From positions 32,001 through 96,000 of the IMG/VR virus record IMGVR_UViG_3300031867_000003: DNA of 64,000 nucleotides; one strand, given 5' to 3'. The notes beneath the pieces are model-generated. The model searched no databases. It saw only the letters and a list, made by a program, of their open reading frames with translations, and had not been told where the DNA came from. Shown here one piece after another: positions 2,607 through 12,408 of the stretch. Position 1 is the stretch's first letter. Each line of letters begins with the position of its first letter. The translations under genes and the position numbers were made by a program. Source of the DNA: a virus (taxonomy: Duplodnaviria; Caudoviricetes).

Positions 2607-3062
2607 ATGACGATTAATTTTATTAATGCAGATATTAAAACTGCACCACAGGGTTATACAATGGTTACAGCATTTTCAGCAGACTTCAACTGCGATGTTG
2701 GTATCAATAAAGTAATGGATCAGATGTTTAATATTGAGAAACGTAAATCCAATATTAAAGTATTTAAGGGCAAAAAGCTTGCCCGACTTGATAATTTATA
2801 TATGCTGCTTGTAAAAGACAGTAGTTATGATAAACCGGTATTTGACAATCTTATTGCTTGCCTTGAAGAATTCAAGACCAAGTGTAAAAAGAACGGTATC
2901 ACAAAAGTTGCCATGCCGGCAATTTGTACTGGGAAAAATGGTTTTGCTGTTGATGACGTGATTCAGGCAATTGATGAGATATTTTTCGACACTGATATTA
3001 GTATTGTAATGTATGTAGGTGATGAAGTATTTAGGTATGTTTGTTCCGCATATGAGGGTTAA
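2607..3062 (+). CDS. macrodomain protein (divergent TARG1/DarG-like)
   Basis: SADF..GI, LYMLLVK and AMPAICTG motifs. Paralog of 28037..28489. Confidence 0.65.
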   Translation: MTINFINADIKTAPQGYTMVTAFSADFNCDVGINKVMDQMFNIEKRKSNIKVFKGKKLARLDNLYMLLVKDSSYDKPVFDNLIACLEEFKTKCKKNGITKVAMPAICTGKNGFAVDDVIQAIDEIFFDTDISIVMYVGDEVFRYVCSAYEG

Positions 3063-3064
3063 TT

Positions 3065-4324
3065 ATGAGCGATTATAAGCCTGTATATTTAGTGATGGTA
3101 TCATCTAACAATAACAATAAATACTATCGTATGCTGGCGAATACCGATGGCGAAACTTTTACGGTTCAGTATGGCAGAGTAGGGGCGAGTTCTCAAACGA
3201 GGACTTACCCTCTGCGAGACTGGGATAAGAAATACAACGAGAAAATCCGCAAAGGTTACGTAGACCAAACACATCTGATGGAAGATTTAATATCGGTGGT
3301 GGATACGAAGCCGGATACTCCGGAGTATAAAGCAATCGAGAACGCTGCTATAGCAGAGATTGTTGACCGCTTAATGAGTATGGCTAAAAAGAAGGTCCAG
3401 CAGAATTACCGTGTGGAATCAAATCAAGTTACTCAGGCGATGGTTGACGAAGCGCAGAAAATAATTGATAGCCTTACAACTATAACAACGATTAAAGCGT
3501 TTAATGAGGAATTGATGAAACTGTTTACCACAATTCCGCGAAAGATGGGTAATGTTAATGATTATCTGGCTAGGTCAACTGATGATTTTGCCCGTATTAT
3601 TAAAGACGAACAAGATCTGCTTGATGTTATGCGAGGCCAGGTAATCACTCACTCGGCTATGGATGATAAACAGACGGCTTGGGATGATAGCGTTGAAAAT
3701 TCTCCGAAGAATGACAAGACCATTCTTGAGGCTATGGGTATTGTGATGAAACCCGTTAACGATGCCGAAGTTGAAGTCATTAAAGATATGTTGGGCGACT
3801 GCAAGGATAAATTCTATCAAGCGTGGAGAGTAACCAATTTGGCTACTCAAAAACGATTTGATGATTTTGTAGATAAAGAAAATATTAAAGATGTTAGGTT
3901 GTTTTGGCATGGGAGCAGAAATGAGAACTGGTGGTCAATTATTAATAATGGTTTGATGATTAGACCTACAAATGCTGTGATTACAGGAAAATTATACGGA
4001 TACGGTATTTACTTCGCCCCTAAAGCAAGAAAATCATTAGGGTATACAAGTTTAAGTGGCAGCTATTGGGCGAGAGGTGATTCATCATCTGGATTTATGG
4101 CATTAATGGAAGTTGCATATGGAGAACCATATGATGTTTATTCTTTTGACAGCAAATACAATTCATTAACTTATGATGAACTTCAAAAGTTTAAAAGAGG
4201 GGCTAATGCATTACATGCTCATGCCGGAGCCGACATGGGTTATGGCAATCCATTAAGAAATGATGAAGTAATAGTATATAAGGAAGATCAAGTAAGTATT
4301 AAATATTTAGTTGAATTGAGGTGA
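3065..4324 (+). CDS. PARP-family ADP-ribosyltransferase (WGR-like, helical regulatory and catalytic domains)
   Basis: NNNKYY...YGRVG WGR-like domain. H-Y-E triad in WHGSR, YGIYFA and NDEVIVY. Confidence 0.88.
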   Translation: MSDYKPVYLVMVSSNNNNKYYRMLANTDGETFTVQYGRVGASSQTRTYPLRDWDKKYNEKIRKGYVDQTHLMEDLISVVDTKPDTPEYKAIENAAIAEIVDRLMSMAKKKVQQNYRVESNQVTQAMVDEAQKIIDSLTTITTIKAFNEELMKLFTTIPRKMGNVNDYLARSTDDFARIIKDEQDLLDVMRGQVITHSAMDDKQTAWDDSVENSPKNDKTILEAMGIVMKPVNDAEVEVIKDMLGDCKDKFYQAWRVTNLATQKRFDDFVDKENIKDVRLFWHGSRNENWWSIINNGLMIRPTNAVITGKLYGYGIYFAPKARKSLGYTSLSGSYWARGDSSSGFMALMEVAYGEPYDVYSFDSKYNSLTYDELQKFKRGANALHAHAGADMGYGNPLRNDEVIVYKEDQVSIKYLVELR

Positions 4325-5055
4325 TTTATATTGTAGAACCTAATCAAAAATATGGAAGACTAACCACAATTTGTGTTGTTGGCAAGACAAAAGACAGAGC
4401 AAATATTTGGAAATGTATTTGCGATTGTGGCAATTACGTCAATGTTAGATCTCAGAGTTTGACGAGTGGTAATACAAAGTCATGTGGATGCTTGCAAAGA
4501 GAAAGGGTTGGAAAGAAATCTACTGAAAGTCGATTATTAAATAAGTATGATCTTTCTGGTGAATATGGCATTGGATACGCTACAAATGGAGAGGAATTCT
4601 ATTTTGATTTAGAAGATTATACGTTAATAAAAGATTATACATGGTCTATAAATGACACTGGGTATGTAACATCTAATCCATTCGGAAAACATTTAAGAAT
4701 GCATATGCTTGTAATGAATAAAAAAGACAGGTCTGACGGTAAAGATATTGACCATATAAATCATAATACCAAAGATAATAGAAAAGGAAATCTTAGAATA
4801 ATAGAATATTACCAAAACATTACACATTGTATAACTTATTCTAACAATACATCAGGAAGAAAAGGTGTATCTTGGGATAAATCAAGATCAAAATGGATGG
4901 CGACAATTACATATAATAAGAAAACATATCATTTAGGTAGATATGATAATTTTGAAGATGCAGTTAAAGCAAGAGAAGACGCAGAAAAAAGGATTCATAA
5001 AGAATTTCATTATGATGAATCACAAAACGAAGAAAGGGATAAGGCTATATCATGA
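4321..5055 (+). CDS. HNH/AP2 homing endonuclease
   Basis: WKCICDCGN...SCGC, DHINHNTKDNRKGNLR, and an AP2-like NTSGRKGVSW...YHLGRY. Confidence 0.85.
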   Translation: MIYIVEPNQKYGRLTTICVVGKTKDRANIWKCICDCGNYVNVRSQSLTSGNTKSCGCLQRERVGKKSTESRLLNKYDLSGEYGIGYATNGEEFYFDLEDYTLIKDYTWSINDTGYVTSNPFGKHLRMHMLVMNKKDRSDGKDIDHINHNTKDNRKGNLRIIEYYQNITHCITYSNNTSGRKGVSWDKSRSKWMATITYNKKTYHLGRYDNFEDAVKAREDAEKRIHKEFHYDESQNEERDKAIS

Positions 5056-5566: not shown

Positions 5567-5830
5567 AGTCAACATAAGCACCAACTAAATATTTGAGGAA
5601 GGAGTTCATTATGAATTATCGGACATGTCCAATCTGTGGAAGAGCAATGATCCTGTGCAGTACATACGCACACGGTCAAGTACCTAAAAGGATTTTTAAA
5701 TGTAGCTGCGGTTTCCGGACAGATGTGGATATGTCCGGTTTGTCGTATAGCGACTTTCTTAATCGATATCACTTTGGTGATAGCAACACAAATAACCATA
5801 ACAAACCAATTAATTATTAAAGGAGCAATA

Positions 5831-6682
5831 ATGATAACAAACAAAATTAGACTGATTGAGCTATTCGGCGGCGTGGGATGCCAGTCGATAGCATTGAGGG
5901 ATTTGGCTATTGCTAATGGTCTTAATCCGGATGACGTATTTGAACACTATAAATTGGTCGAGTTCGATAAATTTCCGGTCAAAAGCTATAATGCGATTCA
6001 TGGTACGGATTTTGTACCGATGGATATTCAAGAAATTCATGGCGAAGACATAGATGTTGAGGAACCGGACAAATATACGGCAATCTGGACGTACTCGTTC
6101 CCATGTCAAGATCTTTCAGTGGCTGGAAAACAAGCTGGGATGGACAGAGACAGCGGAACTCGTAGTGGATTACTTTGGCAAGTAGAACGTTTATTAAACG
6201 AAGTACATAATCTTCCGAATATCCTTATCATGGAGAACGTCACACAAGTCCATAGCAAAAAGAATCTTCATAACTTTGAAGAATGGTGCCAGTTCCTCGA
6301 ATCCAAAGGATACTACAACTATTGGCAAGACCTTGAAGCCAGTGAGTATGGTGTACCCCAGCACCGCAACCGTTGTTTTATGGTAAGTACCCTCGAAGAA
6401 ATCAACTTCGAATTTCCGCAGCCGATTCCGCTCCATGAGGTTATGAAAGACCGACTCGACCCAGTTGTAGATGAGAAGTTCTATATCAACAATGAAAAAG
6501 CGGATGCTCTCATTCAGCAGCTTATTGCCGACGGTAAACTTGATGAGGAGACAATCCTCGAAGCTGTTGATTTATCAGTTAATAACCCAGACACTCTTGA
6601 TATTGCGAATTGTGTCAGTGCGAGAACAGACCGTGGAATCAGCAACCGCAGATCTGAGGGATCGGGAGTTGTGCAATGTTGA
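5831..6682 (+). CDS. C5 DNA methyltransferase, N-terminal catalytic part (motifs I-VIII plus one TRD-like module)
   Basis: ELFGGVG (I), SFPCQDLS (IV), MENV (VI), PQHRNRCF (VIII). Motifs IX and X are absent. Confidence 0.92.
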   Translation: MITNKIRLIELFGGVGCQSIALRDLAIANGLNPDDVFEHYKLVEFDKFPVKSYNAIHGTDFVPMDIQEIHGEDIDVEEPDKYTAIWTYSFPCQDLSVAGKQAGMDRDSGTRSGLLWQVERLLNEVHNLPNILIMENVTQVHSKKNLHNFEEWCQFLESKGYYNYWQDLEASEYGVPQHRNRCFMVSTLEEINFEFPQPIPLHEVMKDRLDPVVDEKFYINNEKADALIQQLIADGKLDEETILEAVDLSVNNPDTLDIANCVSARTDRGISNRRSEGSGVVQC

Positions 6683-6871
6683 AGAATGAACTAACCTCAA
6701 CAATGCCAATTGTTCTCGGCAGAGTACTTCCTTTGACTTCTGATAAAATACACCAGAATCAGGAAGTATACTATGAGGGGGGTCATCTGTACGATTAAAG
6801 CTACACACTACAAAGACCCTCCAAAAGTATTGGTTAAGGAGATAGTAACAAATGAAGAAAGCAACAATTGA
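6676..6871 (+). CDS. TRD-like mini-gene 1, frameshifted at G6 (6777-6782)
   Basis: MLKNE...HQNQEVYYEG, then VICTIKATHYKDPPKVLVKE in the +1 frame. Confidence 0.7.
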
Positions 6872-7035
6872 CCAACTCGGCTGGCTAGAGCGCGGTAACG
6901 GCAAAACTCAATCTAATGTTGTATACTCTGTGGGGGGTCGCGCCGTGTGTTTGCGCCGGCTGTGGAGTAAAATATTGGATTTACATAATAGATAGGGTAA
7001 AAAGCGATGAAGAAACAAATCACGGCAATTTTTAG
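6852..7035 (+). CDS. TRD-like mini-gene 2, frameshifted at G6 (6932-6937)
   Basis: MKKATIDQLGW...QSNVVYSVG, then VAPCVCAGCGVKYWIYII in the +1 frame. Ends at TAG 7035, or at TAA 7053 under code 15. Confidence 0.7.
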
Positions 7036-7183
7036 AAACATGGGGAGTACTAACGAGGATAGAATACCATCATATAGATTAACCGATGTAGCTGAAGCTA
7101 TATTAGCCAGGGATTATAAAGGATGGGGAAATTATTTTGCTAATGGAGTTATTGAAATTGAAAAACTTGAACCAACCGATTAA
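7007..7183 (+). CDS. TRD-like mini-gene 3
   Basis: TDVAEAILARDYKGWGNYFANGVIE, similar to the module ending the N-terminal gene (DIANCVSARTDRG...SGVV). Confidence 0.7.
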   Translation: MKKQITAIFRNMGSTNEDRIPSYRLTDVAEAILARDYKGWGNYFANGVIEIEKLEPTD

Positions 7184-7346
7184 AGTCGGATTTATCGATT
7201 ACTCCGGTTCGGGCAAAGCCCACCAGTCCAATACTGTATACTCGGCGAATGGCATTTGCCCATGTATTTGTAGCTATGCCAATCGGTATGGCGGAGTACA
7301 ATCCAATATATTAGTACGTGAGAATAATTATGGAAAAAATCAGTAG
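7158..7346 (+). CDS. TRD-like mini-gene 4
   Basis: GGAG plus TTG start. HQSNTVYSANGICPCI...NILVRE. Confidence 0.7.
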   Translation: MKNLNQPIKVGFIDYSGSGKAHQSNTVYSANGICPCICSYANRYGGVQSNILVRENNYGKNQ

Positions 7347-7500
7347 TATTTTTATCGGCAATATTTACGGTCACAAAGATGCCTATGCCGGCGCAGTGTT
7401 TGGAGTGCAAGGGCTGTGTCCGGCAATCAAGGCGAACTCCGGCGGTAATACTCAGCCGATAATAGTGGTGAAAGACAATGGTAACAAATCAGTTAATTAG
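7330..7500 (+). CDS. TRD-like mini-gene 5
   Basis: IGNIY...AGAVFGVQGLCPAIKANSGGNTQPIIVV. Confidence 0.72.
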   Translation: MEKISSIFIGNIYGHKDAYAGAVFGVQGLCPAIKANSGGNTQPIIVVKDNGNKSVN

Positions 7501-7678
7501 ATTAGGTAATATATACGGTTTCACAGGCGGATCGTTTGCCGGCAATGTATATTCTCATCGCGGATTATGTCCTGCGATTAACACTGCCGGCGGTGGCAAC
7601 CGTGAACCGATAGTGATTATTAAGGAGATAAATTATAAAGCTAATCAAACAAATAATATGCGCGTCGAGGGGACGTAA
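7478..7678 (+). CDS. TRD-like mini-gene 6
   Basis: LGNIY...AGNVYSHRGLCPAINTAGGGNREPIVII. Confidence 0.72.
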   Translation: MVTNQLIRLGNIYGFTGGSFAGNVYSHRGLCPAINTAGGGNREPIVIIKEINYKANQTNNMRVEGT

Positions 7679-7820
7679 CCCGAATAATCCGAGTGACCGC
7701 AGTAGAACCGGTGGCGGTATTCTTGTGCAACGTCTGGAGCTTGCTGAGGATGAACTCGCACATACGATTACCTCAGTAGCTAAGGATAATTGGGTGTTCG
7801 AAATATATGGAAAAGAATGA
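7635..7820 (+). CDS. TRD-like mini-gene 7 (apparent ATA start; missing from the ORF track)
   Basis: AAGGAG then ATA. CASRGRNPNNPSDR...QRLE...AHTITSVAKDNWVFE. Confidence 0.65.
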   Translation: MKLIKQIICASRGRNPNNPSDRSRTGGGILVQRLELAEDELAHTITSVAKDNWVFEIYGKE

Positions 7821-8016
7821 AAAGCTATTAGATTCTCGCTGTCTTGTGCCAAAACGTACCGAGTATGGTAAGCGTATACGCAAAGATTATGAGGCACATC
7901 GATTATATGAGCATCGTTCCAACATGATGATGTTACATCCTCGCACAGACGGATGCATAAATACATTAACAACAATACTAAAGGATAACTACATCCTGGA
8001 AATATATGAGAGATAG
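7807..8016 (+). CDS. TRD-like mini-gene 8
   Basis: RTEYGKRIRKDYE...PRTDGCINTLTTILKDNYILE. Confidence 0.72.
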   Translation: MEKNEKLLDSRCLVPKRTEYGKRIRKDYEAHRLYEHRSNMMMLHPRTDGCINTLTTILKDNYILEIYER

Positions 8017-8212
8017 TAATAAAGATAATGATAACAAACTAGTGCCGATTTGTCTCGGCGGAATCGGCGAAATTAATTATGGCAAGCAATATCGCCTCGG
8101 TAACCGTGTTTATGACAGCAGAAGTGTTGCCATGGCACACTGTGCTAATCCTGTCGGTAATCTCGGCGGTTATACATATTTATATTTAGTAGTAGAGGCT
8201 AATAATGAGTAA
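8006..8212 (+). CDS. TRD-like mini-gene 9
   Basis: LGGIGE...GNRVYDSRSVAMAH...GGYTYLYLV. Confidence 0.7.
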   Translation: MRDSNKDNDNKLVPICLGGIGEINYGKQYRLGNRVYDSRSVAMAHCANPVGNLGGYTYLYLVVEANNE

Positions 8213-8630
8213 ACCACTTTTTAAACTTGACAATCATTTATTATATTTTGATTATATATTGGAATACTTTGACTTATTTCATCCGATGTTTTACGTGTGC
8301 AGGGACGATAATGATGAACGTTTTTTGGTTTTGAGGATGGATTTATGTGAGAAGGAATCATACTTGATTACCGAAATCAGCCTAAACGATTTAAATAATA
8401 TGCTATTAGGGAATATCACTATAAGATCGGCATTTCTTGATCGATCATCATTCTACGAGGTTCACTGTTTAACGGAGAACTACTCAGATGACGTAGTAAC
8501 AAAACGTGAAATATCAGAATTCCCTATAGAATACTTACCGGGTAAAGATTATAAATATGTTCTATATGATGACGAGCATAGAGAGTATCAAAAACGAATT
8601 GCAAAAGAATTGGAGAAAACCAATAGTTAA
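8205..8630 (+). CDS. unrelated hypothetical protein inserted in the TRD array
   Basis: 141-aa acidic ORF with no TRD-module motif. Confidence 0.7.
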   Translation: MSKPLFKLDNHLLYFDYILEYFDLFHPMFYVCRDDNDERFLVLRMDLCEKESYLITEISLNDLNNMLLGNITIRSAFLDRSSFYEVHCLTENYSDDVVTKREISEFPIEYLPGKDYKYVLYDDEHREYQKRIAKELEKTNS

Positions 8631-8632
8631 TT

Positions 8633-8854
8633 ATGCAAGAAATTGGACTAATATTTTTAGGAGGTCTCGAGAGTAGCCTGTGGCTAGATAACGGCAAGAG
8701 ACTATCTCGGAATTTCCGCCAAGGATACAGAGTATATGATAGCCGAGGATTAGCTAATACACTACCGAGTAGTAGCATTGGCGGTCTCGGCGGTAACAGT
8801 GGATTATATTTGGTAATTGAGGTAGATAATGAGTTCAGTAATAGCGGAAGATGA
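8633..8854 (+). CDS. TRD-like mini-gene 10
   Basis: LGGLE...QGYRVYDSRGLANTL...GGNSGLYLV. Confidence 0.72.
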   Translation: MQEIGLIFLGGLESSLWLDNGKRLSRNFRQGYRVYDSRGLANTLPSSSIGGLGGNSGLYLVIEVDNEFSNSGR

Positions 8855-9055
8855 CCCTTTCAATATTATTAAAAATAACCGGTATGGGGGGGGAGATATA
8901 AGATGTTTTACGAAAAACATGGATATATTCCCGGAATTTTTCACCCATATAGTTTACAAGACACTTCGCAGATAGCTTGTACACTGTGTTGTGATTGCGG
9001 AGCGCCGGGACATGCAAGTAATATGATGGTGATAACTAAGGAAAGGATTGATTAA
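8829..9055 (+). CDS. TRD-like mini-gene 11, frameshifted at G8 (8886-8893)
   Basis: MSSV...NRYGG, then RYKMFYEKHGYIPGIFHPY...IACTLCCDCG...MMVI in a shifted frame. G6 or G9 restores the frame. Confidence 0.68.
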
Positions 9056-9057
9056 AT

Positions 9058-9348
9058 ATGAGTAGTGATAATATGACAGAAACAAAATACCGTTACAGAA
9101 TTCGCAAGCTTACGCCAAAGTGTTGTTGGCGTCTGATGGATATAGCCGGTCCAAATGATGAATACTTTAATCGGGCTGAACAAGTCAATTCGAATTCACA
9201 ATTGTACAAGCAGGCCGGCAACGGCATCGTCCGCTCAGTGCTGATGGGCATTTTCTCGCAGCTTGACATCGCCGGCATCCGCAAGTGGAATGACATGAGC
9301 GATGAAGAAATTAACCGTATGTTACATTATCAAGAAATTACCTCTTGA
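9058..9348 (+). CDS. C5 DNA methyltransferase, C-terminal part (motifs IX-X)
   Basis: RIRKLTPKCCWRLM (IX) and SQLYKQAGNGIV (X). Confidence 0.9.
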   Translation: MSSDNMTETKYRYRIRKLTPKCCWRLMDIAGPNDEYFNRAEQVNSNSQLYKQAGNGIVRSVLMGIFSQLDIAGIRKWNDMSDEEINRMLHYQEITS

Positions 9349-10496: not shown

Positions 10497-11059
10497 AGGT
10501 TGTAGATGTGAGGATTTACATTGGTACAAAACCTTTGCCAATCGTTCTACGTCCGAATACTTGTTTTATAGATGTGAGGATTTACATTGGTACAAAATCT
10601 TAGCCATCAAAATCCCTCATTTGTAACTGTTTTGTAGATGTAAGGATTTACATTGGTACAAAACCTTATCTGGAAGATATGTCAGTGAAGGAAGTTTTGG
10701 AAATGTAAGGATTTACATAGGTACAAAACTTCAAGCCAGCTTGATTTAAGTTTACGCTTGTTTTGTAGATGTTAGAATTTATATTGGTACAAAACCCACC
10801 GGATCCGAACGATACTGATTGACATGTTTTGTAGGTGTAGGGATTTACATTGGTACAAAACTAGAGCCGACAAGGGGAATGCATAAGTTTCGTTTTGCAG
10901 GTGCAAGGATTTACATAGGTACAAAACCATAAAGACAAAGCCCGAAACGCCATCAACGTTTTGTAGGTGCAAGGATTTACATAGATACAAAAACTCGGCA
11001 GTTTCGAAGTTCTATAGACTTCTACTTTGGAAGTGTAAAGATTTATGTGGAGATATAAT
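10497..11059 (+). CRISPR. CRISPR array: 8 repeats plus 1 degenerate terminal repeat, 8 spacers of 29-30 nt
   Basis: Consensus GTTTTGTAGATGTAAGGATTTACATTGGTACAAAAC (36 nt) at 10497, 10563, 10629, 10694, 10760, 10826, 10892 and 10958. Degenerate copy at 11024. Confidence 0.95.
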
Positions 11060-11061
11060 AA

Positions 11062-12408
11062 ATGATTACGAGAAAAATTCAGTTATATCCTATTGGAGAT
11101 GAAAAAGAAGTTGATAGAGTATACACATATTTAAGAGATAGCATTAAATCGCAGAATAAAGCGATGAATCAATATATGTCTAATCTGTATGTGGAAGAAT
11201 TATTAAATGCGTCCAAAGAAGATCGAAAAGAATTAAATGCATTATATACTAGAATTCCGACCAGTAAAAAAGGAAGCGCTTATAGTCTGGATTTGGAATT
11301 CCAAAAAGGACAGATGCTTGGTTATATAACCAGAGCAATAGATTCAGATTTTAAAAAATCACTAAAAGACGGGTTGATGTATGGGAAAGTATCTCTCCCG
11401 GTTTACTCAAATAGCAATCCGTTATTAGTTCATGTGAATTATTGCAATTTGCGTAGTAAGGTTCAAAAACAAACAGGCACTAACACTGGTATTTACCACA
11501 ACTACGAATCTCATCAGGAGTTTTTATCTCATTTGTATAAAACAGATATAGAAATATATCTTCAGTTCTGCAATAATATTTTGTTTAAATTAAATCTCGG
11601 TGATAGCCTCAGAAAATCTCGCGAAATCCGTTCAGTAATACAGAAAATATTTGAGGAAGAATATATTATCCACGGTTCGCAGATCCAGTTAAAGAAGAGG
11701 AAAACTGGCAAGGGCGAAGATATATTCTTACTGCTATCAATCGAAACTCCGGTTGTTAAGCATGAACTTGATGAAAATATTGTTGTCGGCGTAGATCTCG
11801 GCGTGGCAAATCCGGCAGTATGTGCAGTAAACATTAACGGCAATTATAAATTCCTGGGCGACGGAGAAACATTCCTTCATTATAAACAAAAATCCAAAGC
11901 CGAAAGACGCAGACTTCAGAGAGCTCTAAAGTATACAAATGGCGGTCACGGAAGAACCAAAAAACTGAAAGCACTCGATAGATTGAAAGAACGTGAGAGC
12001 AACTTTACTACAACGTATTCTCATAAGCTCTCAAAAGATGTTGTAGATTTTGCCATTGAACAGCATGCCAAATACATCAACCTCGAGGATTTAACCGGAA
12101 TAGATGACAAAGATGGTAAAAAACTTCTCGATTGTTGGAAATACTACGAACTTCAGCAGTTTATTATCTACAAAGCTACTCATCATGGCATAGTAGTCCG
12201 CTTTATTAATCCAAAATATACATCTCAGACTTGTTCCAAGTGCGGAAATCATGCCGAGGGGCAGCGTGACGGTCATAGTTTTACATGTAAAGATTGTGGC
12301 GAAGAGCTTGATGCCGATCTTAATGCAGCCAGAAACATTGCTATGTCAACAAATTTTGTTGAAAGAGGCAAGAAGAAAAAGAAAAAGAATAAAACCGATA
12401 ATAAATAA
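11062..12408 (+). CDS. cas12f: Cas12f-like (TnpB-derived, type V-F/V-U3-like) RNA-guided nuclease
   Basis: 448 aa. RuvC GVDLG, NLEDL and DADLNAARNIA. Zn ribbon CSKC/CKDC and GGHGRTKKL motif. Directly follows the array. Confidence 0.82.
   Translation: MITRKIQLYPIGDEKEVDRVYTYLRDSIKSQNKAMNQYMSNLYVEELLNASKEDRKELNALYTRIPTSKKGSAYSLDLEFQKGQMLGYITRAIDSDFKKSLKDGLMYGKVSLPVYSNSNPLLVHVNYCNLRSKVQKQTGTNTGIYHNYESHQEFLSHLYKTDIEIYLQFCNNILFKLNLGDSLRKSREIRSVIQKIFEEEYIIHGSQIQLKKRKTGKGEDIFLLLSIETPVVKHELDENIVVGVDLGVANPAVCAVNINGNYKFLGDGETFLHYKQKSKAERRRLQRALKYTNGGHGRTKKLKALDRLKERESNFTTTYSHKLSKDVVDFAIEQHAKYINLEDLTGIDDKDGKKLLDCWKYYELQQFIIYKATHHGIVVRFINPKYTSQTCSKCGNHAEGQRDGHSFTCKDCGEELDADLNAARNIAMSTNFVERGKKKKKKNKTDNK

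Follow-up and report, generated by a model that had tools for sequence, protein, structure and literature searches.

This study describes a C5 DNA methyltransferase (MTase) that is encoded in pieces, and the chain of small genes lying between those pieces, in a metagenome-assembled virus record of 202 kb (IMG/VR record IMGVR_UViG_3300031867_000003). The window, by which we mean the whole stretch of 64,000 nucleotides that was analyzed, comprises bases 32001-96000 of this record and has a G+C content of ~37%. A stop-to-stop map of the three forward frames places motifs I-VIII of the enzyme (the N-half) and motifs IX-X (the C-half) in different frames, separated by 2.4 kb of short open reading frames (ORFs) on the plus strand (Table 1). 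Between the halves lie eleven target recognition domain (TRD) cassettes, A to K, and one unrelated ORF of 141 amino acids (aa). Eight of the eleven cassettes (C, D, E, F, G, H, I and J) are intact single ORFs of 56-73 aa, and A, B and K are each frameshifted inside the module at a poly-G run. Every TRD in the window is bounded by stop codons and lies in a different frame from its neighbors, and these are therefore not tandem TRDs within one polypeptide. The start of each mini-gene falls shortly before the preceding gene ends, and the frame nearly always moves forward by one. It is well supported that the core of the enzyme is divided between two genes and that the eleven further TRDs form a head-to-tail chain of mini-genes.

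The N-half matches PF00145 over profile positions 2-209 (E 7.6e-40) and contains motifs I (FGGVGC), IV (FPCQ), VI (ENV) and VIII (QHRNR). Its last 37 residues (~6569-6679), which run from ANCVSARTDRGISN to GSGVVQC, make up a TRD in cis, here called TRD0; relatives likewise have this module fused to the N-half. The C-half matches PF00145 at positions 263-322 with 19.3 bits, just below the 22-bit cut-off, matches a PHROG DNA methyltransferase (8.6e-16), and retains the GNG of motif X. Both halves are separate ORFs with starts of their own, and so correspond to two translated chains of the M.AquI type. The N-half with TRD0 and the C-half could together be a complete enzyme, with the eleven cassettes as extras between them. 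In the related locus L002 (L numbers designate related loci throughout) the N-half is 87% identical to that of the window and keeps the stop after VVQC/VIQC; the ratio of nonsynonymous to synonymous substitution rates (dN/dS) between the two loci is 0.06 for the N-half and 0.08 for the C-half.

The assignment of the mini-genes as TRDs comes from comparison with intact enzymes. Units B-J have in-frame homologs in the variable regions of between 1 and 12 of 12 single-chain C5 MTase references: H is 60% identical to the in-frame TRD of P0050, G and C are 55% and 65% identical to TRDs of the single-chain MTase P0089, and G has in-frame homologs in seven single-chain MTases. TRD0, A and K had no match in this small set of 12 references; L009, L005 and L013 do carry A-like and TRD0-like modules as in-frame fusions. 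Searched alone against Pfam, PHROGs and PDB sequences, the mini-ORFs gave no meaningful match. Two top hidden Markov model (HMM) matches, P0044 and P0129, were rejected as TRD relatives, being unrelated repeat proteins. The orthologs of A and B in L012 (1666-1857 and 1838-1996) are each one ORF, the latter with GTGGGTGGT at the G6 site, and the L012 ortholog of K is also broken, at another site (T3).

Table 1. Coordinates of the split C5 methyltransferase locus in the window
Feature	Position	Strand	Remarks
N-half gene, 283 aa, stop TGA	5831..6682	+	motifs I-VIII, helical linker, cis TRD0
Cassette A, split 6676-6798 / 6773-6871	6676..6871	+	frameshift at G6 6777-6782
Cassette B, split 6852-6995 / 6916-7035	6852..7035	+	frameshift at G6 6932-6937
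Mini-gene C, 58 aa, ARDYKG type	7007..7183	+	ATG overlaps upstream ORF by 29 nt
Mini-gene D, 67 aa, HQSNTVY..GICPC type	7143..7346	+	homologs in single-chain MTases
Mini-gene E, 56 aa, GNIYG..GLCPAIKANSGGN type	7330..7500	+	dN/dS vs L002 0.43
Mini-gene F, 66 aa, GNIYGFTGGSFAGNVY..GLCPAINTAGGGNREP	7478..7678	+	dN/dS vs L002 0.13
Mini-gene G, RGRNPNNPSDR..TITSVAKDNWVFE type	7632..7820	+	dN/dS vs L002 0.06
Mini-gene H, 69 aa, PKRTEYGK..TDG.INTLTT..KDNYILE type	7807..8016	+	14-nt overlap
Mini-gene I, 68 aa, GNRVYDSR..NLGG..LYLVVE type	8006..8212	+	11-nt overlap; dN/dS vs L012 0.16
141-aa ORF, not TRD, possibly DUF6575-like	8205..8630	+	inserted between cassettes I and J
Mini-gene J, 73 aa, paralog of I	8633..8854	+	homologs in single-chain MTases
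Cassette K, TRD-like, split 8829-8975 / 8903-9055	8829..9055	+	frameshift at G8 8886-8893
C-half gene, 96 aa, no TRD of its own	9058..9348	+	motif IX RIRKLTPKCCWRLM, motif X YKQAGNGIV

The junctions between the units are regular. In the window, 12 of 16 junctions show a frame step of +1, and with L002, L003, L012 and L021 included the count is 43 of 53 successive junctions. In all five loci the downstream ORF starts a few codons before the upstream one ends, and six junctions of L021 share an identical 8-nt overlap, ATGAnTAA/TGA/TAG. The regular step may be a by-product of ATG codons formed within linker codons for Asn/Asp/Tyr-Asp/Glu (AAT GAn, TAT GAn). Most junctions are not at homopolymers, and A5-A8 runs are common at junctions. 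An alternative genetic code was considered and rejected: the breaks are changes of frame, and TAA, TAG and TGA all end units. Programmed +1 ribosomal frameshifting was likewise rejected as a general mechanism, as no slippery motif is common to the overlaps and the ATGAnTAA junctions do not allow P-site re-pairing. A promoter and terminator scan was uninformative: there was no excess of promoter-like sites (17, vs 18.8 in the shuffled control), while terminator-like sites numbered 8 vs 3.4 in shuffled sequence (sd 2.2) and were weak consensus matches only, including the four on the plus strand from 5742 to 9249.

Much of this layout had been proposed in an earlier note, which was made from the sequence alone. 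Its assignment of motifs I-VIII and IX-X to separate genes is borne out by the PF00145 and PHROG matches and the different frames, and the shared TRD-like module pattern that it described is real, since B-J match C5 MTase variable regions in frame when compared with them as the note had suggested. Its count of 11 ORFs of ~55-75 aa holds for the cassettes; only eight are intact ORFs, A, B and K being split. The note correctly recognized catalytic motifs I-VIII in the N-half and missed the cis TRD0 at its end; a Shine-Dalgarno (SD)-like sequence, which it saw at most ORFs, is convincing at about half of the starts, and the 141-aa ORF between the halves is not a TRD.

The same chain of mini-ORFs is found in L002, L003, L012, L021, L031-L033 and others, which come from different samples; the first four are viral contigs, and L031-L033 are Logan and ENA assemblies found through single mini-proteins. 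Compared with L002, the mini-ORFs have dN/dS values of 0.06-0.43. Against L012 and L003 the synonymous rate (dS) is saturated and the proteins are 55-73% identical, as are both catalytic halves; mini-gene D, for example, is 66% identical to its L012 ortholog at saturated dS. These values indicate that the mini-ORFs are under purifying selection, each in its own frame. The split is kept, as the earlier note had proposed to check in related phages, and identical breaks in independent samples speak against the breaks being unique or errors of assembly.

Stand-alone TRDs are widespread. A word-indexed search with TRD-F returned stand-alone homologs in 43 clusters of 38-109 aa, which start 2-12 residues before the invariant GNIYGFTGGSFAGNVY core. 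An exhaustive HMM search with the TRD-F profile gave 1,521 clusters at E<=1e-3; among the best 150 of these, 71 are proteins of <=120 aa without catalytic motifs, 51 combine one or more TRDs with a C-half and ~10 are complete single chains. ORFs in which two TRDs are fused are also present in the database. We identified 94 loci with both halves, made up of 30 single-chain loci, 27 two-chain loci, 26 with 3-4 ORFs and 11 with at least 5, and the window holds the largest array among them; many phage sequences from the gut and rumen share this layout. Single-chain relatives from the same clade include L018 (739 aa) and Dulem virus 39, the nearest GenBank phage, which has 61% identity in the N-half and an ordinary single-chain gene of 527 aa. 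Among GenBank phages, a megablast of the region gave zero matches and a tblastn search with TRD-F gave no match; the TRD-F profile found no relative in representative bacterial genomes. Relatives of the N-half occur mainly in genomes of Lachnospiraceae, other Clostridia and Treponema.

Another mix-and-match layout is seen in L009 (6656-7596), where one N-half is followed by two alternative genes, each with one or more TRDs and its own motifs IX-X. In further relatives the N-half is interrupted at its catalytic PC motif by an intein with a LAGLIDADG endonuclease (L021:4741-6516, with a Pfam Intein_splicing match of 1.2e-14; L012:1001-1100; P0165).

Slippage-prone repeats are a second feature of the family. 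The 64-kb window has seven runs of G>=6, three of which lie inside cassettes A, B and K, and the G8 at 8886 is its only G8; the window thus has frame-shifting tracts (G6, G6 and G8) inside coding regions, as expected of a phase-variable locus. The preferred reading of these three poly-G runs is that each switches, or has knocked out, a single cassette. A tandem repeat scan found no multi-copy non-triplet tandem repeats in the array of the window. Across the 94 loci we counted 85 slippage-prone tracts in 160 kb of methylase locus vs 18 in 593 kb of flanks, a 17-fold enrichment in the methylase region (binomial p 6e-40). In L007 and L011 the repeats (AACAGAG)5 and (GAAC)12 directly follow the N-half, and the three frames after the repeat lead respectively into TRD0, across TRD0 into the next TRD, or to a stop. 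A mini-ORF of L021 begins ATG-(AAGCAAC)5 and then reads TRD x, TRD y or a stop according to frame, and (ACAG)7 and (GAACA)12 lie just after the ATGs of other mini-ORFs and of the C-half gene in the same locus. L032 and L033 both have a G8 at the GGG motif of a TRD-F-type unit; the run is in frame in L033 but out of frame in L032. L032 has ten G/C runs of 7-8 nt inside its 2-kb array and none outside. The presence of such switches on the free mini-ORFs of relatives (L021, L032/L033) is an argument for a function of the free peptides. In the large arrays (window, L012, L003, L002 and L031) no junction has a long tract, and the split is stable. From these patterns of repeat and reading frame, it appears that slippage-prone repeats select or switch TRDs family-wide, as a second mechanism layered on the split.

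A (TTAC)4-5 repeat encoding YLLTY is found just before motif IV of the N-half in L005:6218, L011:6218 and L017:2721, and the same repeat precedes motif IV in L018:6383, L050:4218 and L066:890; it could act as an ON/OFF switch for the whole enzyme.

We modeled the assembly of a free TRD with the core by docking three chains: the C-half, N-half residues 1-244 (truncated ahead of the cis TRD) and, as the partner to be scored, TRD-F. The model of TRD-F had an ipSAE of 0.91, with 0.00 for the best of three controls; of 80 solved complexes 58 attained the docking mark, as did 2 of 110 mismatched pairs. Agreement in contacts between runs was at least 76% and the partner pLDDT at least 68. In the model the terminal strand of TRD-F (residues 42-52) touches C-half residues 9-18, which form the opening strand of motif IX, and TRD-F residues 24-39 touch N-half residues 176-180 in motif VIII. 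Folded alone with AlphaFold2, TRD-F has a pLDDT of 57, which fits a peptide that would fold on the core. This modeling bears on the compatibility of a free TRD with the core, not on binding.

From the conservation of the split and the modeled assembly, we consider that the locus probably encodes a genuine, conserved multi-chain and multispecific phage C5 MTase whose TRDs assemble in trans. The array would be transcribed as one mRNA, on which coupled termination and re-initiation would yield the TRDs as free peptides of 56-73 aa. Such a peptide, unfolded alone, would fold against the core, its last hydrophobic strand pairing with the C-half strand that opens motif IX and its recognition loops resting on the motif VIII face of the N-half, so that the small domain is rebuilt. 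Different TRDs would give holoenzymes with different target sites, and the phage DNA, methylated at many sites, might then escape many host Type II restriction enzymes. The poly-G runs of the three out-of-frame cassettes would be slippage switches or recent knock-outs of individual specificities, and the longer repeats of relatives seem clearly to do the switching job. The earlier note had already read each TRD as an exchangeable subunit, and the conserved split, the widespread stand-alone homologs and the docking agree with it; the three cassettes that are out of frame do not. The three-chain model that it proposed places TRD-F in the canonical TRD position, with an ipSAE of 0.91 vs 0.00 for the best control. 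Its picture of a mix-and-match enzyme lacked the slippage-prone repeats that appear to switch or select TRDs across the family.

Several observations weigh against an assembly in trans. The docked topology is canonical, and the pass, and with it the score, may reflect single-chain MTase structures that the model has memorized; furthermore, the cis TRD0, which was removed before docking, may compete for the TRD site. A frameshift interrupts cassettes A, B and K, three of the eleven. Unit G has no ATG, GTG or TTG, with ATT at 7632 and ATA at 7635; a perfect AAGGAG precedes the ATA by 7 nt, and the L002 ortholog has ATG at the ATA position. Around half of the starts have a weak SD, and these overlap the upstream stop by 8-47 nt. 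Motif IX reads TPKCCW (9118-9123), with Cys in place of the Glu that is kept in 8 of 8 aligned relatives (TP.E). In the two closest relatives, L002 and L008, the N-half is broken right after the PCQ codons, by a 6-nt insertion (TAGCAT, L002:6280-6285) and by an 8-nt insertion (TAGTGCAT) at the same place in L008, so the lineage may be losing the system. Splits in the distal variable region of M.SssI are poorly tolerated (PMC3404938), and the literature provided no precedent for complementation of a C5 MTase from three pieces. Slippage-prone tracts occur in 32 of 37 loci with at least 3 ORFs vs 5 of 30 single-chain loci; this correlation suggests that some of the stand-alone ORFs in the database are OFF-state fragments and, with the overall enrichment, that part of the multi-ORF look of the family is phase variation. 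As a separate observation, the insertions of L002 and L008 lie close to the intein insertion point of other relatives.

The tracts lend themselves to a different account, in which the array is a frame-staggered store of cassettes whose TRDs act only in covalent fusion with one of the two halves. In that account, slippage within repeats or homopolymers would bring one or another cassette into frame, and the mini-ORFs would represent the unfused OFF state. The 17-fold enrichment and the concentration of tracts in multi-ORF loci fit such a store, as do the choice between TRD0, the next TRD and a stop after the repeats of L007 and L011, the two-TRD fused ORFs of the database and the A5-A8 runs often seen at junctions. 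It does not account for the largest arrays, including the window, which have no long junction tract; a single slip there would fuse at most two units, because each frame closes after one cassette. Moreover, start codons at the junctions are kept across saturated divergence, and in L021 the repeats follow the start codons of the mini-ORFs themselves instead of the catalytic halves. We regard a cassette store of this kind as unlikely.

An ancestral single-chain multispecific MTase could also have been broken by accumulated frameshifts and now be a decaying pseudogene. The lesions inside three TRDs, the loss of the motif IX Glu, the broken N-halves of L002 and L008, the separate break in cassette K of L012 and the existence of single-chain relatives are all what decay would leave. 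Decay would not leave every unit under purifying selection in its own frame, nor regular starts overlapping upstream stops, with six identical 8-nt overlaps in L021; 43 of 53 frame steps in the same direction are not expected from random insertions and deletions, and the same breaks appear in independent samples. The probability of a pseudogene therefore seems to us low.

The free peptides might be real and serve another role, by modulating or blocking the core, retargeting a host C5 MTase or binding DNA sites, given that the N-half with its cis TRD0 and the C-half already make up a complete two-chain enzyme on paper and that a lone TRD is predicted to be unfolded. The homology of the units to working TRDs of single-chain enzymes, their constant position between the two halves and the docking of TRD-F in the canonical TRD position make this very unlikely. 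Finally, a sequencing or assembly artifact (homopolymer miscalls or a chimeric strain consensus), conceivable for a metagenome-assembled virus with three breaks at poly-G runs, has almost no probability in our view, as most junctions are away from homopolymers, the other genes of the window are intact with ORFs of up to 658 aa, and the same architecture appears in many independent assemblies.

The 141-aa ORF between cassettes I and J had zero Pfam or PHROG matches; its ESM Atlas feature score was 0.92, with a structural TM of 0.90 to clusters that partly carry DUF6575, and L012 has no such ORF between its I and J orthologs. Its start uses the same ATGAGTAA overlap as is used in the array. Just upstream of the methylase locus is a homing-endonuclease-like ORF with HNH and AP2 domains (4321-5055), preceded by a Macro-domain ORF (2607-3062) and a 419-aa ORF (3065-4324) with WGR and PARP catalytic domains. 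Another C5-methylase-like ORF, of 232 aa (1345-2043), is a weak one and matches PF00145 with 24.8 bits at profile positions 1-126; GTDC replaces its PC motif, ENP replaces ENV, and motifs IX and X are absent. Downstream, a repeat array with a 66-nt period (10503-10990) lies directly upstream of a 448-aa ORF (11062-12408) with Cas12f1-like TNB and OrfB_IS605 domains, and the region 10503-12408 looks like a phage-borne miniature CRISPR-Cas12f/TnpB-like locus.

If the TRDs do assemble in trans, this would be the first C5 MTase with a free specificity subunit and the first three-chain C5 MTase, in which a single core would shield the phage from many restriction enzymes. Trans-assembly would also account for hundreds of unannotated ORFs of 40-100 aa that lie beside methylase fragments in gut and rumen viromes; such loci should not be annotated as pseudogenes by default. 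The system would also be a natural plug-in means of programming 5-methylcytosine specificity, relevant to split-MTase tools. A broader proposal, which we judge about evenly poised between right and wrong, is that these C5 MTases are organized like Type I systems, with a two-chain core and exchangeable, separately translated TRD subunits of ~60 aa, which would fold on the core only and be encoded in arrays of up to a dozen, each one switchable by slippage-prone repeats. In this way a population of phages would hedge its risks, trading protection from Type II restriction against exposure to restriction that depends on methylation. Together with the repeat-driven selection of TRDs in relatives, this points to phase-variable methylomes in phages, which to our knowledge were previously reported from bacterial Type I and III systems. 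Neither separately encoded C5 TRDs nor repeat-selected TRDs in phage MTases were found in the literature, the coverage of which was incomplete, and no description of the architecture turned up there, as the earlier note had said of it.

Among known systems, the single-chain enzymes of Bacillus phages and the two-chain M.AquI and M.EcoHK31I come closest. The multispecific C5 MTases of Bacillus phages (SPR, phi3T, rho11s, SPbeta and H2) consist of a core with tandem TRDs of ~40-50 aa between motifs VIII and IX; the classical enzymes have 3-4 TRDs, and their presumed role is phage self-protection. Work on these enzymes was published by Trautner et al. in 1996 (EMBO J 15:1434, cited as ref. 31 in PMC12707154). 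The window resembles them in having one core and several TRDs, which are homologous to the in-frame TRDs of single-chain enzymes, and differs in that each TRD has its own stop, start and frame, the core is in two genes, and there are 12 TRDs, TRD0 included, rather than 3-4. In M.AquI and M.EcoHK31I, motifs I-VIII and IX-X are on separate, non-covalently assembled chains (PMC3404938), as they would be here, and 27 of the 94 related loci have exactly this two-gene form. However, the chains of M.AquI share one variable region between them, whereas the window has additional, alternative third chains and a C-half without a variable part. Pieces of engineered M.HhaI, M.SssI, M.BspRI and M.BsuRI that were cut in the variable region re-associate into active enzyme (PMC3404938, PMC3439449); that complementation is artificial and involves two pieces, while the arrangement in the window is natural and joins a core with TRD genes. 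The nearest parallel in logic is given by Type I HsdS and phase-variable hsdS/mod systems (phasevarions), in which simple-sequence repeats switch or alter specificity (PMC7383803, PMC5909438). Type I HsdS differs in belonging to cellular N6-adenine systems of the gamma/beta class, with TRDs of ~150 aa within one S subunit; what it has in common with the array described here is a separate specificity polypeptide, a shared catalytic subunit and switching by repeats.

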